Shown: in pieces, positions 29,268 to 34,844 of the stretch | Layout: each line of letters begins with the position of its first letter | How positions within the stretch are numbered: the first letter of the stretch is position 1 | NCBI GenBank assembly: GCA_963666215.2 | Contig: CAXWPL010000004.1 | Location: forward strand, 384,001-448,000 | Source of the DNA: Acidobacteriota bacterium | Lineage (GTDB): Bacteria; Acidobacteriota; UBA890; WLXD01 | Direction: 5' to 3' | Length of the DNA: 64,000 bases | The notes under the pieces: model-generated | Database searches by the model: none | Seen by the model: the letters and a program-made list of their open reading frames with translations, nothing else | What the model was told of the DNA's origin: nothing | Translations under genes and position numbers: made by a program

Positions 29268-29711
29268 CTAGCGCGGCAGGACGGTCCGAACGGGAAAGCG
29301 CCGGAAGCCACGATCGAAGGTCACGAGCTCGAGGTCGGTGGCCATGGCGTGCGCCGCGAGATAGGCGTCTGTCCAAAGTCCGGGAGTTACCGGCGCGGAC
29401 CCGCGCGCGCGCACGAGGTTCTTGAGGATGTCGTCGAGTTCGGGCGGCTCGGTGAAGAACTCGACTGGCCGTTGCTCGGCCAGCACCGAGTAGTCGTCCC
29501 AAGCCTCTGCGGCCGTCCGAATGGACCGACCCATCACATGGCGATTGCACAGAAGCCGCAGGAACCCCATCTGCGTGAGTCGGCAAAAACCGACGACAGC
29601 CTTGTCGGGCACGACCTCCTGCTCCCACCACGCGACGGCCCGATTGTGATGTGGATGCGGCTCGAGAACGGTGGCGAGCCAGACGTTGACGTCAGCTAGG
29701 ATCCGCCGCAT
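29268..29711 (-). CDS. VapC PIN-domain toxin
   Basis: LADVNVWLA, GFLRLL, WTDAYLAA, LVTFDRGF. Confidence 0.9.
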   Translation of the reverse strand: MRRILADVNVWLATVLEPHPHHNRAVAWWEQEVVPDKAVVGFCRLTQMGFLRLLCNRHVMGRSIRTAAEAWDDYSVLAEQRPVEFFTEPPELDDILKNLVRARGSAPVTPGLWTDAYLAAHAMATDLELVTFDRGFRRFPVRTVLPR

Positions 29712-30006
29712 GTGCTGCCGCTTGTGTTTCTTCCTTTTCGAGCAGCTCATGGACCCGCGCCGAAGTCAGATCACGAAGCGCACGACCGCCGGGGCCGCGC
29801 ACGATCGGAAAGAAGCAGCCGCCGCCCAGGTCCTGGCGCTCGTCGACGCCATACGCGGGCGCGCGCTCCGCCACCGTCATCAAGCCGCCGTCGAGGGCCG
29901 CGCGGACCGCCTCTGTGACGTAGTCCTTGAGCTTCATACCCCGCAGGGCCGCCTCGGACTTCGCTCGCCGAAGAATTTCTTCCGGAATGTCGATCGTCGT
30001 GCGCAT
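29692..30006 (-). CDS. VapB-like RHH antitoxin
   Basis: MRTTIDIPEEILRRAKSEAALRG; overlaps the toxin gene. Confidence 0.85.
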   Translation of the reverse strand: MRTTIDIPEEILRRAKSEAALRGMKLKDYVTEAVRAALDGGLMTVAERAPAYGVDERQDLGGGCFFPIVRGPGGRALRDLTSARVHELLEKEETQAAAHAADPS

Positions 30007-30014
30007 GGACACAT

Positions 30015-30039
30015 TTTGATGCGTTTGATGCTTTGATGC
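30015..30039. promoter_or_regulatory. Three direct repeats TTTGATGC, probable antitoxin operator
   Basis: tttgatgc g tttgatgc tttgatgc immediately upstream of the antitoxin ATG. Confidence 0.65.
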
Positions 30040-30163
30040 AACGACGAATCGTGGGGCCTCGGAGTATGGAGCGCCATCGTCGGGCGTCGTAGCCCGGCGT
30101 GTCGCATCTCGGAGTTCGCCATGGTCGCGCGCTCCCTGCCTCAACCAACTTCGCCCTTTCGCC

Positions 30164-32425
30164 CTATAGAATGCTGGGCTCCGTCGCGTACGACAGGCGC
30201 GCGATGGGTCGCAACTGATCGCGGTCGTGTTCAGAAGCGAGCGCCCGTTTTACAGCCTCCACGAGACCGCCCTCGCGCTGCTCCACTAGCTGCCTGGCTC
30301 GACGGATGTCTTCGTCGAAGGGTCGGTCGGTGAGCGCCGTTTCGATCTGCGCTTCGCGAATCGCCACGTAGGCCGCGCGCGTCCCGGGAGCGAGCTGCGC
30401 GATGCCGGCATCGCGGCACTCAGCCACCGCGCGTTCGAACAAGCGGGCCACAACCTTCGACTGGGCACGAAGACGGAGAACGCGATCGAGTGCAAGCTCG
30501 GCTGCGGTACCCGGCCGGTCTTCGATGAACGGGAACAAGGGCTGAGCGAGCGTGGCGAGGTTGTCGATGAACTTCTCTTTGGCAGCGGCCGCAGGCGTGG
30601 GGCGGCCCTTGGACTCACACTCGCGCACCCACGCGTCCCATGCGTCGGCTGCCCACGCTTCGAGATCCGACGGGCCCACGGCACCGACCAGGGTCCGCCA
30701 ATCAAGAGCCTGGGCGGCAACCATCAACTCGATCGCGATCACAGCCTGGACGTTCTCGAGCACGCTGCGGGCCTTGCGTCAGGCGATCGTTGCCATGGCA
30801 ACGTGGTCCTCGGTGTTGGCCGACGTCGGGATCGAATCGACCGACGCCGGATGCGCAAGGACCTTGTTCTCGGAAACCAGCCCGGCGGCGCAGTACTGCG
30901 CCAGCATGTAGCCCGAGTTCACACCAGCCTCGGGAATCAGATTTCCCGGCAGCCCGCGGTTGTGATTGCGATCGAGTAGGAGCTGCGTCCGGCGCTCCGA
31001 GATGTTGGCAAGCTCGGCGAGCGCGATCGCCAGGTAGTCGGCCGCCAACCCGACCGGCTGGCCGTGGAAATTGCCGGCCGAGAACGACTCCTTCTTGTGG
31101 CCTGCGTAGGCAACCTCGCCGCCACCGTCACGCGTCGGCTGCGTGGGCCAGTTGGCGTCGAATTCGGTGTCCCACTTCCTGCCGTCGCCGGTGACCACTC
31201 CGAGGCCCTCAAAGAAGAAGATTGGGTTGTCGATACCCGCTCGGATCTCCTGGTCGATCACCATGCGCGCGTACGAGATGGTGTCGCGGCTGGCGCCGTG
31301 GACCGCCGGGGCGCAACGGATCGAGTAGGGGTCTTGCACGGCGCCCGCTCGTTCCAGCAGCTTGCTGCCGTCGAGCACGGCGCGAACGTTCGCCGCGCAG
31401 TCGATTTGACCGCGCTGCCGTCGCAGTCGATGCACCTTCTCGTCGAAGGCACGGCCACAGCCGCACATCGCCTCGGCGGTCATGGCCAACGCGATGTCCG
31501 CCGCGCTGGCGAGCGTTTCCGCGTCGTGCACCGCGAGTGCAAGCAACGCCGCCGAGACCGTCGCACCGTTTGTCAGTGCGAGGCCTTCCTTGTAGCTGAG
31601 CGTTAGTAGCTTCGGGCTTGTTTGCGTCCGCCGAATCGGGTCGTCCTCGGCGGCGCGTTCCTTGGCCGCCTCCCACGCCAGGCTCAGGGCCCGCTGGAGA
31701 CACTCGGCGGAAAGCACGACGCGCTCGGGCAACTGGCGTTCGTCGATATCGGGACTGGATTCATCGAGGTGAGTCTCGAAGTCGGGGCCGGCAGCGATGG
31801 TTTCCGGCGTGGTGGCCAAGTAGAAGAATCCCGATCCAAGCAGCACTCCGAACAGATGGACGAGCGGCGCCAGGTCGCCACTCGAGCCCACCGAGCCGCG
31901 CGTGGGAACCAGCGGAACGACGCCGGCGTTGATCATCCGGCAGACGGTGTCGACAAGCTCCCACGAGGCCGCCGAGTGGCCCATCAGGAAGGTACTGAGG
32001 CGCAGCAACATCGTTGCCCGCACGACCTCCGCCGAGAAGTAGTTGCTCGGGGCCCTGAAGTCGGAAGTCTGTCCCACTCCAACGGCGTGACTGAGAAGGA
32101 TCTTGCGCTGCAGCTCCTCGAGCTCGTCGGGATCGATCGGGATGTTCTTGAACTCGCCGAACCCGGTGGTGACCCCGTAGTCGGTAGCCGGCGGCCGCTC
32201 TGCCCCGGCTTCATAATCGGATTTGCTCTTCTTGTAGGCCTCGACGCGCTTGACGAGCTCGGCGCGGACCGCTTCTACGCGCTCGCGCGCGGCAGGTGAG
32301 ATGCGGATCCGGCGCCCGCCTCGAGCTACCTCGACGAGCCGGTCGAGGTTGAGGTTCTCGCCCGTCAGCTCGAGCGAGTCATCCTTGGAGTGAGCGTGAT
32401 CGGGATTCGCCGGACCGTCGTTCAC
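30164..32425 (-). CDS. hutH: Histidine ammonia-lyase-like MIO enzyme, enlarged (about 753 codons), in-frame TGA at 30779-30781
   Basis: YGVTTGFG, LLSHAVG, GSVGSSGDLAPL, KEGLALTNG, QDPYSIRC, GNFHGQP, TSANTEDHVAM; downstream RKARSVLENV..ELMVAAQALD is in the same frame. Confidence 0.85.
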
Positions 32426-33864
32426 AGCCCGCTCTCGATGCGCCCCAGCAGTGCACCGAGGCGGCTCACGAGCTCGGCCCGCGGCGCCTCGAACTGGCCT
32501 GGGCGCTCTTTGATCCAGTCGGCGCGGTCCTTGAGCTCTTCCGCGCTCCTACGGCCGACGTCCATGTCCTTGATCTGGACCTGTCCCGACTCCTTCTCGC
32601 GCGTCCCGTAAATCACGGCAACCGGGATGTCGCAACGGTCGGCGTACTTGAGCTGCTTGCCGATACCCCGCTCGGTGCCGAGGTAGAGCTCGGTTCGGAT
32701 GCCGGCGCGGCGCAGCTCGTACGTCATCTCGAGGTAGTCGCTCGTGAGGCTCTCGTCCATGTTGATGACAAGCACCTGCGCGGTGGACCACTTGAGCTTC
32801 ACGGCGCCAATGTCGACCAGCGCGGCCAACAACCGATCGACGCCCATAGAGGCACCGGTTGCCGGAATCGCTTCGCCGGTGAAGCGCTGCACAAGCTCGT
32901 CGTAGCGGCCGCCGCCGAATACCGATCCGAAGCGTGGGGCGTCACGCAGGTACGCTTCGAAGACCGGGCCTGTGTAGTAGGCCAGGCCGCGAGCAATACT
33001 CAGATCGACAACCACGCGATCGTTGCCATACCCGAGAGCGGCCAGGTGGCCGGAGATGCGGTCGATGACGTCGATCTCGGCGCCGGCCTGAGCCAGGCCG
33101 GAAAACAGATCGCGTAGCTGGGCGATGACCTCGCCGCGCTCATCGGAACGAATCGCCAGAAAGAGCTCGATACGATCGACCTGTTCGCTCGTGAGGCCGA
33201 GCCCGGGGATCTGATCGCCCGATTCGTCTTTGTAGCCGGTCGTGAGCTCCAGGCGGACCTTGGCCGGCCCGATTTTCTCGAGCTTGTCGAGCACACGGAA
33301 AACGTCGGTGGACCTGTCGCGCGAGATTCCGGCGAAGTCGAGCAGCAGGTTGAGCACGCTCCGGCTCGAGAAACGAACGACGTAGTTGTCGACATCGAGC
33401 GCCGATAGCGTGTCGCACATGCCGGCGATGATCTCGGTGTCGGCAACCTCCGACGGAGCCCCCACCGAGTCAAGATCGAACTGGGTGAACTCGCGGTAGC
33501 GACCGGGGCCCGGCTTGTCGGCGCGCCAGACCGGCGAGACTTGGTAGCGGCGGAACGGCCGAGGCAAATCGACGTACTGGGAAACCACCCGCGCCAACGG
33601 CACCGTGAGGTCGAACCGCAATCCGAGCCCGCGCTCCTCTGGCTCGCGAGGATTGTCGACATGGAAGATCGACTGCTGCGCCTCATCGCCGCCGGTCCCC
33701 GAGAGCACATCGAGAAACTCGAACGCCGGCGTCTGTAACGGCACGAATCCGTAGAGCTCGTACACGCCACGAACCTTGGAGAGCATCCACTGCCGAGCCT
33801 GCATGTGATCGGGCAGTTGATCGCGAAGCCCGCGCGACAAGCCGGGAGTAACGAGATCTGACAT
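32422..33864 (-). CDS. hisS: Histidine--tRNA ligase, divergent KPGPGR type
   Basis: RGLRD, LRFDLTVPLAR, WRADKPGPGRYREFTQFDLD, RGLAYYTG, GGGRYDEL, GASMGVDRL, KQLKYADR. Confidence 0.96.
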   Translation of the reverse strand: MSDLVTPGLSRGLRDQLPDHMQARQWMLSKVRGVYELYGFVPLQTPAFEFLDVLSGTGGDEAQQSIFHVDNPREPEERGLGLRFDLTVPLARVVSQYVDLPRPFRRYQVSPVWRADKPGPGRYREFTQFDLDSVGAPSEVADTEIIAGMCDTLSALDVDNYVVRFSSRSVLNLLLDFAGISRDRSTDVFRVLDKLEKIGPAKVRLELTTGYKDESGDQIPGLGLTSEQVDRIELFLAIRSDERGEVIAQLRDLFSGLAQAGAEIDVIDRISGHLAALGYGNDRVVVDLSIARGLAYYTGPVFEAYLRDAPRFGSVFGGGRYDELVQRFTGEAIPATGASMGVDRLLAALVDIGAVKLKWSTAQVLVINMDESLTSDYLEMTYELRRAGIRTELYLGTERGIGKQLKYADRCDIPVAVIYGTREKESGQVQIKDMDVGRRSAEELKDRADWIKERPGQFEAPRAELVSRLGALLGRIESGL

Positions 33865-34054
33865 AGGTGGTTTGCCTGACTGAATGGCGGTCGTCAGGAC
33901 CGCGGCGCTCCGTGCGGCAGTGCAGTACCGCGCAGGACTGGAGCCGCTCGCGTCGGGGTACCGAGAGCGACGCGGCGGCGGTTGAAGCTCGAACAGAGTC
34001 AAGAATCGGTCACGCGTGCCCCGAGCATGAGCGGGACGCGGACCGAAGTTGGAG

Positions 34055-34127
34055 TACCGGCGACGGGACTTGAACCCATGACCTCCTGATCCACAATCAG
34101 GCGCTCTACCAGCTGAGCTACGCCGGC
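34055..34127 (-). tRNA. tRNA-His (GUG) with G1:U72 and A73
   Basis: GCCGGCG TA GCTC AGCTGGTA GAGC G CCTGA TT GTG GA TCAGG AGGTC ATGGG TTCAAGT CCCGT CGCCGGT A; full cloverleaf, anticodon at 34092-34094. Confidence 0.95.
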
Positions 34128-34250
34128 CCCAGGGCCAAACTACGGGCGCTAGTGTAGCGGTAAAACAAAGTCTCCGACGCGCCAATCACCCGGCGGATTG
34201 GCAGCGAGCATCGAGGCCTCGGGAAGTTGAACCACGTACAATGCGCAGCC

Positions 34251-34844
34251 ATGAAAATCATCCCGAACGCTCGTGCGTGCGCCCTCGTGGCGCTTCTGGT
34301 TTCGATCGGCTGCCAGCCGCAGCAGCAACCCGAGCCCGCTGCCGCGGCGGACCCGGTGACCACGGTGATCTACTTGATGCGTCACGCCGAGACGCTATTG
34401 CCGCCACCCGAGGACGCGCCGCGTGACCCGCCGCTCAACATCATGGGACAAGAACGCGCCGACGCGTTGGCGCGACTGCTGTCGAGCGAGCCCATCACGC
34501 AGATCTTCAGCACCGAGTTGCGGCGCACGCAGGAAACTGCGGCACCGCTCGCCGCCCGGCTCGGGATCGCGGTAGCCCCGTACGATCCGTCCGACCTGGA
34601 AACGTTCGCCGGGGTGCTCAAGGCAGCATCAGGCCGCGTTGTGGTATCCGGGCATAGCAACACCACGCCGGTGCTCGTCGGATTTCTCGGGGGAGAGCCC
34701 GGAGAGCCGATCGACGAGAGTGTGGAGTACGACCGGCTGTACACGGTGATCGTCCGCAACGGCGAGGTGGTGACGACGCTGCTTCAGCGCTACGGAGATC
34801 CGCTACCCGACAACTGGCAGGAGCTGGCTTCGACGCGACGTTGA
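34251..34844 (+). CDS. Histidine phosphatase (SixA/phosphoglycerate mutase-like) lipoprotein
   Basis: Lipobox-like SIGC; MRHAE, RTQETA, GHSNT. Confidence 0.85.
   Translation: MKIIPNARACALVALLVSIGCQPQQQPEPAAAADPVTTVIYLMRHAETLLPPPEDAPRDPPLNIMGQERADALARLLSSEPITQIFSTELRRTQETAAPLAARLGIAVAPYDPSDLETFAGVLKAASGRVVVSGHSNTTPVLVGFLGGEPGEPIDESVEYDRLYTVIVRNGEVVTTLLQRYGDPLPDNWQELASTRR

Follow-up and report, generated by a model that had tools for sequence, protein, structure and literature searches.

The guanosine at position -1 of tRNA-His (G-1) is among the most universal tRNA identity marks. A 64,000-nt stretch of an acidobacterial genome (Acidobacteriota bacterium; GenBank assembly GCA_963666215.2, contig CAXWPL010000004.1, positions 384,001 to 448,000 of the forward strand; hereafter the window) bears on how this mark may be given up: it contains a tRNA-His gene with U72 and A73 directly upstream of hisS, the gene for histidyl-tRNA synthetase (HisRS), and this HisRS is of the delta-G-1 type, for which G-1-independent charging is predicted. 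We label the genome G000 and its HisRS P0001. The pair is foreign to its host, and we consider it probable, on the evidence presented below, that a laterally acquired, linked delta-G-1 cassette displaced the resident canonical pair and is now the sole histidylation system of G000.

The tRNA-His(gtg) gene is the sole tRNA gene in the window (ARAGORN span 34054..34127, minus strand), and the Rfam tRNA model scored 71.6 bits over 34055..34127, compared with a gathering score of 29. Its acceptor stem (GCCGGCG with CGCCGGU) has G1:U72 as the top pair and C3:G70 as the third pair, and its discriminator is A73 in place of C73. The letters 3' of A73 are CUCCA, so CCA is not encoded in register; this follows the habit of the genome, as only 12 of the 50 tRNA genes of G000 encode CCA and the other 38 need its post-transcriptional addition. 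The hisS gene opens with an ATG at 33864, 190 nt 3' of A73, and ends with its stop at 32422.

P0001 is a synthetase and not HisZ, because it scored above the cut-off of the NCBIfam equivalog model for hisS (TIGR00442; 346.6 bits, cut-off 286.75) and carries the class IIa anticodon-binding domain (HGTP_anticodon, PF03129; 54.9 bits); the hisZ model TIGR00443 gave 185.9 bits, under its cut-off of 271.65. The motif 2 stretch reads WRADKPGPGRYREF, with the loop DKPGPGR, a second stretch, TTGYKDESGDQIPGLGL, carries a 12-residue insertion (the TGYKDESGDQIPGLGL region), and alignments place a further insertion of ~19 residues in the anticodon-binding domain. Among solved structures, 3net and 6nhi come closest to P0001, with human cytoplasmic HisRS next. 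Canonical HisRS (ERPQKGR) catalyzes the same reaction on the same domain plan but has another motif 2 loop and is 25-30% identical to P0001, and canonical tRNA-His differs from the G000 tRNA at positions -1, 72 and 73; none of the canonical bacterial identity features (the G-1:C73 pair, G1:C72 and the ERPQKGR loop) is found in the G000 pair. An earlier reading of the window, made from its letters alone (the sequence-only reading), had called a tRNA-His(GUG) with G1:U72 and A73 and, about 190 bp downstream on the same strand, a hisS with this motif 2 and a GYKDESGD-type insertion, and each of these calls was borne out. It had also linked KPGPGR to the alphaproteobacterial type; both KPGPGR and GxxDxSGD are indeed marks of the alphaproteobacterial delta-G-1 enzymes, being present in hisS of Ruegeria, Sinorhizobium and Methylobacterium.

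The G000 assembly comprises five contigs totaling 4.65 Mb, with an estimated completeness of 91.7% and contamination of 2.97%, and the window lies within a contig of 1.06 Mb. Across the entire assembly, the Pfam HisRS family (PF13393) has a single match, ARAGORN found one tRNA-His among 50 tRNA genes and Thg1 (PF04446) had no match at E ≤ 1 in this 91.7% complete genome. The second hisS, tRNA-His or Thg1 gene that the sequence-only reading had thought worth looking for was thus not found, and the pair is the only one of the assembly rather than an extra one. RNase P RNA of type A scored 273 bits in G000, and the tRNA nucleotidyltransferase family (PF01743) is represented by two genes; a tRNA-SeC and a one-piece tmRNA with the tag ANTPVALAA are also encoded. 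Alphaproteobacteria have two-piece tmRNAs, and the one-piece form, along with the assignment to the phylum Acidobacteriota, confirms the earlier suspicion that the genome is not alphaproteobacterial. A GyrB comparison in the ESM Atlas pointed to Pseudomonadota as the most frequent phylum among the nearest clusters; we give this weak signal little weight, as it conflicts with the acidobacterial assignment.

The stretch itself is reproducible across independent datasets. Contigs from four public runs belonging to four studies align to positions 30100-34300 with 0 differing letters: two runs (X2 and X6), which possibly include the source of the assembly, cover these positions in one contig each, a third (X8) in two contigs, and a seawater metagenome (X13) piecewise, with 2 of 30 bins uncovered and the tRNA missing from its listed pieces. 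The spanning contigs from two runs measure 8.9-10.2 kb, and the identical stretch occurs in public runs of 11 studies. The sequence error for which the earlier reading had allowed is therefore not apparent in these contigs.

We compared G000 with its class, which is represented in our collection by 26 species genomes from one order and two families, the 25 others consisting of 10 from the family and 15 from the order. P0001 had no match at E ≤ 1e-60 in any of the 25, giving weak matches of 25-35% identity, and motif 2 reads ERPQKGR in all seven class HisRS that were aligned (G001, G003, G006, G007, G010, G012 and G018). A canonical tRNA-His with G-1, G1:C72 and C73 is present in all 10 family genomes and in 9 of the 15 order genomes; the remaining 6 (55-86% complete) gave no tRNA-His match at E ≤ 1e-9. 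Where these relatives keep the canonical genes, G000 has none. In G001, G003 and G006, birA and aspS flank the canonical hisS in the order valS-birA-hisS-aspS, and on contig C5 of G000 valS-birA-aspS is still colinear (41-69% protein identity), with a gap of ~30-110 nt between birA and aspS and no HisRS-like remnant between them. In G001 and G003, a conserved promoter-like stretch is followed by tRNA-His and then tRNA-Arg(CCG), the cluster of G001 extending to Lys(CTT) and Leu(TAG), and the G007 locus ends after the promoter-like stretch, tRNA-His and the beginning of the next (Arg) gene; in G000, the same promoter-like stretch is followed by a 76-nt spacer and then Arg-Lys-Leu. This His-less cluster is located on the cassette's own contig, 225 kb from the cassette. 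Both ancestral slots, for hisS and for tRNA-His, are empty in G000 while their flanks remain colinear, and this, with 0 of 25 class genomes carrying the pair, upholds the co-transfer into the lineage that the sequence-only reading had proposed.

Related cassettes were collected with a pattern scan over one genome per prokaryotic species, based on two peptide motifs of P0001-type HisRS that are lacking in the alphaproteobacterial enzymes examined. The scan yielded at least 591 stretches, of which 566 were confirmed, and the comparisons that follow use the best 80 of these 566. Their HisRS are 62-71% identical to P0001, and the loci come from Acidobacteriota (71), Planctomycetota (7) and unlabeled genomes (2), the 71 being divided among Thermoanaerobaculia (47), Holophagales (3), Vicinamibacteria (3), Bryobacterales (1) and unclassified members (17); unrecognized lineages with this system, an option raised by the earlier reading, do therefore exist. 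Upstream flanks reach 400 nt or more in 74 loci, and in 66 of these a same-strand tRNA-His precedes hisS by no more than 400 nt. In G000, hisS is followed by a divergent aromatic-amino-acid lyase gene that is closest to histidine ammonia-lyase (HAL-like); such a gene starts within 400 nt downstream in 63 of the 73 loci whose downstream flank is 1 kb or longer. The spacer between tRNA and hisS has a median of 56 nt in the 69 related cassettes with an upstream tRNA, compared with 190 nt in G000. Identity of the G000 tRNA-His reaches 93% with cassette tRNAs (median 82%, n = 71) as against at most 75% with 25 canonical tRNA-His of relatives (median 69%), and among the best 80 its closest matches are Thermoanaerobaculia-like cassettes (HisRS 71%, tRNA 93%).

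Among the 69 cassette tRNAs, G1:U72 was scored by script in 66 and is also seen by eye in the remaining 3, for which the ARAGORN start call was one base early. For position 73 the script gave 62 A, 6 G and a single T; inspection upholds G73 in 4 loci, and the other two G and the T stem from early-called genes that read A73. The base at -1 is not conserved across the cassette clade, with script counts of 46 for T, 16 for G, 5 for A and 2 for C. CCA is encoded in 64 of the 69, unlike in G000. Of 401 genomes sampled evenly across the phylum, 15 (G000 among them) have a P0001-type HisRS (identity ≥46%), and a U72 tRNA adjoins hisS in 11 of the other 14. Extra PF13393 matches, either hisZ or a second hisS, occur in four of five named cassette genomes. 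Individual cassettes also vary: some tRNA-His (L116, L118, L127, L129 and L162) have G73 instead of A73 with U72 retained, so the discriminator is not fixed within the family; two loci (L079 and L159) have a tandem pair of U72/A73 tRNA-His upstream of hisS; and deep-branching enzymes (L163, L165 and L167; L166 is a close relative outside the alignment) read KPDPGR instead of KPGPGR.

By tblastn against a collection of plasmids and chromids, the best named matches of P0001 were hisS genes of Rhodobacterales (Ruegeria, Rhodobacter, Paracoccus and Cereibacter) and Rhizobiales (Sinorhizobium, Shinella and Methylobacterium), with 41-44% identity over 95-99% of P0001, and identity fell to 34% in the next-best group. 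Alignments revealed three signatures that the cassette group as a whole has in common with the alphaproteobacterial enzymes and that canonical and type-B HisRS lack: the KPGPGR loop of motif 2, the 12-residue insertion GxxDxSGDxxxGxGL and the ~19 extra residues of the anticodon-binding domain, the last being common to Ruegeria, Sinorhizobium and Methylobacterium. The first Gly of KPGPGR is 'Gly123', which according to Amrine et al. 2014 (PMC3937112) replaces the Gln that reads G-1:C73. Yuan et al. 2011 (PMC3064791) regard the insert in the anticodon-binding domain, which no other class IIa synthetase has, as probably underlying anticodon discrimination. In its tRNA, the Caulobacter crescentus delta-G-1 system has the same G1:U72, C3:G70 and A73 (PMC3064791).

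In a maximum-likelihood tree of 69 HisRS rows (LG+C20+F+G4, quick search), all 51 delta-G-1-type rows unite with a Shimodaira-Hasegawa-like approximate likelihood ratio test (SH-aLRT) value of 100, and type B is their nearest outgroup. The first split within this clade separates the acidobacterial genome G281 and three alphaproteobacterial rows (SH-aLRT 100) from the other 47, among which G000 groups with Thermoanaerobaculia, Holophagales and unclassified Acidobacteria in a clade of 30 rows (SH-aLRT 97). The 14 other delta-G-1-type genomes of the 401-genome sample all fall in the 51-row clade. The phylogeny, a check that the sequence-only reading had suggested, places P0001 with the alphaproteobacterial delta-G-1 enzymes as sister. 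The idea of a new kind of pair has to be dropped: by the three signatures and the 51-row clade, the pair belongs to the known delta-G-1 family.

The two branches of this family differ in organization and history. The G000 tRNA gene is linked to hisS and the HAL-like gene, whereas neither lies within 4 kb of hisS in three alphaproteobacterial loci (the gene order in Ruegeria is hisS-hisZ-hisG), and the host here is an acidobacterium that obtained the system via transfer, whereas the alphaproteobacterial trait is treated in print as a synapomorphy of the RRCH clade. The inserts LGKFLPDxDRP and TFExxxEKG are confined to alphaproteobacterial sequences and G281. The HisRS of the latter (L168, G281:C77) has all alphaproteobacterial inserts, occurs in one of five genomes sampled in its family and has a U72/A73 tRNA-His directly upstream; it was either acquired from Alphaproteobacteria or is related to their source. 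Type-B HisRS (RADRPQ.RGR..EFYQCD), a eukaryote/archaea-like bacterial form on the same broad branch as 3net and 6nhi, is 35-43% identical to P0001, is without both insertions and keeps the motif 2 Gln or an equivalent. By identity band, it is present in 71 of the 401 sampled genomes; tRNA-His is canonical, with G-1 and C73, in the three type-B genomes examined (G032, G035 and G037), and a tRNA adjoins hisS in 0 of 16 type-B loci. The HisRS of the protists Acanthamoeba and Trypanosoma are reported to be G-1-independent too (PMC3561963, PMC4338351), but they are eukaryotic and of independent origin, and we liken them to P0001 by description.

Under the displacement that we favor, the transfer unit would have consisted of tRNA-His, then hisS, then the HAL-like gene, the donor would have been a Thermoanaerobaculia- or Holophagae-like acidobacterium, and the resident G-1:C73 tRNA and ERPQKGR synthetase would have been deleted after acquisition. 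If the two systems are mutually blind, an incoming synthetase with its own tRNA would be self-sufficient at once and could coexist with the resident pair until either was lost. The model in print for the alphaproteobacterial clade is different: in the account that later papers credit to Ardell and Andersson, hisS alone is transferred and the resident tRNA-His adapts in place, and three alphaproteobacterial loci, with no tRNA-His within 4 kb of hisS, are in keeping with it. For G000 we rate this history as highly improbable, since the tRNA sits beside hisS, an arrangement seen in 66 of 74 related loci, and shows up to 93% identity with cassette tRNAs and no more than 75% with those of the host's family, and the host's own slot in the His-Arg-Lys-Leu cluster is empty. 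Just as improbable is vertical inheritance, by which the pair would be ancestral to the class and the relatives would have regained the canonical system. The delta-G-1 type is indeed found in several other classes of the phylum (the 15 of 401 genomes, G000 included), but none of the 25 other class genomes carries the pair, and the G000 enzyme nests among Thermoanaerobaculia-like sequences. Moreover, the canonical hisS sits in one valS-birA-hisS-aspS context (G001, G003 and G006) and tRNA-His heads its cluster (G001, G003 and G007), and with contexts so conserved in the family the vertical model would require many independent regains at the same sites. That the cassette is an artefact, brought in by contig chimerism or by contaminating DNA in a metagenome-assembled genome, has the 2.97% estimated contamination on its side and is the least credible of the three: the 1.06-Mb contig of the cassette also bears the His-less tRNA cluster, which is in synteny with relatives of the host, the stretch is spanned by contigs of 8.9-10.2 kb in two runs and covered by two contigs in a third, none of them with any difference, and the genome has no further HisRS or tRNA-His.

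Beyond G000, it is possible, though we would not call it likely, that the linked cassette is the original mobile form of G-1-independent identity; it would have arisen from type-B HisRS in Acidobacteriota or their neighbors and spread repeatedly into Planctomycetota, the class of G000 and possibly the RRCH ancestor, with later unlinking.

How the acquired identity works may be sketched from the Caulobacter system, from which we infer where the mature tRNA begins, which identity rules apply, G-1-independent charging and orthogonality. The type A RNase P would cut the tRNA-His precursor at +1, because A73 is unable to pair with the -1 base; the shifted cleavage depends on a G-1:C73 pair (reviewed in PMC3064791). 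As no Thg1 was found in G000, no G would be added and the mature tRNA would begin at G1, while the CCA end would be added enzymatically after transcription. The motif 2 Gly in place of Gln and the anticodon-domain insertion suggest that HisRS would select its tRNA via the GUG anticodon and U72/A73 rather than G-1, as measured for the Caulobacter enzyme. In that system, U72C costs 91-fold and anticodon changes 91-1000-fold (Yuan et al. 2011, PMC3064791), adding G-1 lowers the efficiency of HisRS 5-fold, Escherichia coli tRNA-His is a 250-fold worse substrate and the Caulobacter and E. coli systems do not cross-charge (PMC3064791). A eukaryote-like identity, in which an encoded G-1 is retained or added opposite A73 and read by the enzyme, would suit the three G letters at -1, -2 and -3 in G000 and the position of P0001 on the eukaryote/archaea-like HisRS branch (3net, 6nhi, then human cytoplasmic HisRS). 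We nevertheless think it unlikely: position -1 of the 69 related cassette tRNAs is T far more often (46) than G (16), no Thg1 was found in G000, the Gln reading G-1:C73 is a Gly as in the G-1-less alphaproteobacterial clade (PMC3937112), and both the 5-fold loss that G-1 causes with the Caulobacter enzyme and the dependence of the RNase P shift on G-1:C73 (PMC3064791) speak against it.

Several observations count against displacement by a delta-G-1 pair with Caulobacter-like rules. A second histidine pair on DNA missing from the assembly is conceivable, and the rpoB model TIGR02013 had no match in G000 despite its 91.7% completeness. A candidate tRNA-His remnant in the 76-nt spacer was rejected, as local alignment scores of 14-15 did not exceed those of shuffles (p 0.20-0.43); with similarity to the lost gene insignificant, decay in place is unsupported. 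A 20-kb DNA query from around the cassette gave scattered paralogue matches and no colinear region in five family genomes, so the non-colinear flanks allow no empty-site comparison for the insertion point. The phylogeny comes from a quick tree search. Genomic positions -1, -2 and -3 ahead of G1 are each G, and on sequence alone a templated G-1 is possible in G000. The D-loop of the G000 tRNA is AGCUGGUA, and at 8 nt it lacks U20a; the Caulobacter type has 9 nt with U20a, many related cassette tRNAs have the 9-nt loop AGTTGGTTA, and deletion of U20a from Caulobacter tRNA-His costs 2-fold only (PMC3064791). Finally, P0001 is 41-44% identical to the alphaproteobacterial enzymes, forms a sister clade rather than nesting among them and lacks the alpha-specific inserts LGKFLPDxDRP and TFExxxEKG, so the Caulobacter rules are applied to it by extrapolation.

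The coordinates of the cassette and its neighbors are given in Table 1. In other genomes the HAL-like gene forms the conserved third part of the cassette, being found also at L062:4434-6233 and in most of the loci L062-L141, and it is the only PF00221 gene of G000. Its product scored 512 and 480 bits with the hutH models, just below their cut-offs of 524 and 539, reads GSVGSSGDLAPL at the position of the lyase triad and has extra segments and a C-terminal extension. The triad of HAL is Ala-Ser-Gly. In G000, the gene is broken by an in-frame TGA at 30779-30781, giving 548 aa and then 199 aa, and the TGA is reproduced by contigs of four runs. A selenocysteine reading of this codon is ruled out by the residues at the same position in 63 homologous loci (Ala in 56, Gly in 5, Ser in 1 and Cys in 1). 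A HAL-like gene stands beside hisS in 2 of 16 type-B loci as well: in L004 (G035:C144) and L005 (G036:C63) it lies immediately upstream of hisS, and in G035 the two share one open frame of 944-1009 aa, possibly a HAL-HisRS fusion. Given this adjacency in type-B genomes, the linkage of HAL-like gene and hisS may predate the delta-G-1 type.

On the other side of the HAL-like gene, PIN-domain and antitoxin-like open reading frames (ORFs) form a VapBC-like pair directly beside the cassette; we count them as neighbors and not as parts of it. Between 33000 and 35000, tRNA was the one Rfam family with a match at E ≤ 1, and a scan of 29900-34500 gave no sigma-70-like promoter site; five terminator-like sites in the scanned region are no excess over shuffles (mean 2.7, sd 2.0). 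The one RNA run, X20, contains 0.05 of the sampled words.

Table 1 Cassette genes and adjoining features, in window positions
Feature	Position	Strand	Size and basis
tRNA-His(GUG) gene	34055..34127	minus	73 nt through A73; ARAGORN, Rfam RF00005
Spacer between tRNA and hisS	33865..34054	minus	190 nt
hisS (P0001), delta-G-1 type	32422..33864	minus	480 aa; TIGR00442, PF13393 and PF03129, alignments, tree
HAL-like gene (aromatic-amino-acid lyase)	30164..32425	minus	PF00221, 457 bits; start overlaps hisS stop
PIN-domain toxin ORF with overlapping antitoxin-like ORF	29268..30144	minus	PF01850, 50.5 bits; ParD-like match under cut-off

The kind of system is known; as far as we have checked, its distribution, the linked cassette form and the displacement event are unreported. 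The review by Giege and Eriani 2023 names the G-1-less system for certain alphaproteobacterial groups only, Mukai et al. 2017 place it in Alphaproteobacteria and their phages only, and Yuan et al. 2011 (PMC3064791) left the origin of the alphaproteobacterial system open. No report of a G-1-less bacterial system outside Alphaproteobacteria was found in the literature searched, although Wang et al. 2007 and Ardell and Andersson 2006 may mention cases.

The enzyme and tRNA signatures of the delta-G-1 type are widespread in Acidobacteriota and occur also in Planctomycetota, and there the genes are physically linked. They offer a large natural pool of candidate orthogonal histidine pairs for code engineering, and the conserved HAL-like neighbor suggests a connection of the charging of histidine with its breakdown. 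G000 appears as a clean natural swap of a whole pair in which both old genes were excised, a route by which a frozen identity rule may be changed without a lethal intermediate. The origin of the alphaproteobacterial system also becomes directly testable by phylogeny. If the linked cassette was indeed the original mobile form, the alphaproteobacterial trait would be an import and not a unique invention in situ, and nature would repeatedly have swapped tRNA identity rules by displacing whole pairs.

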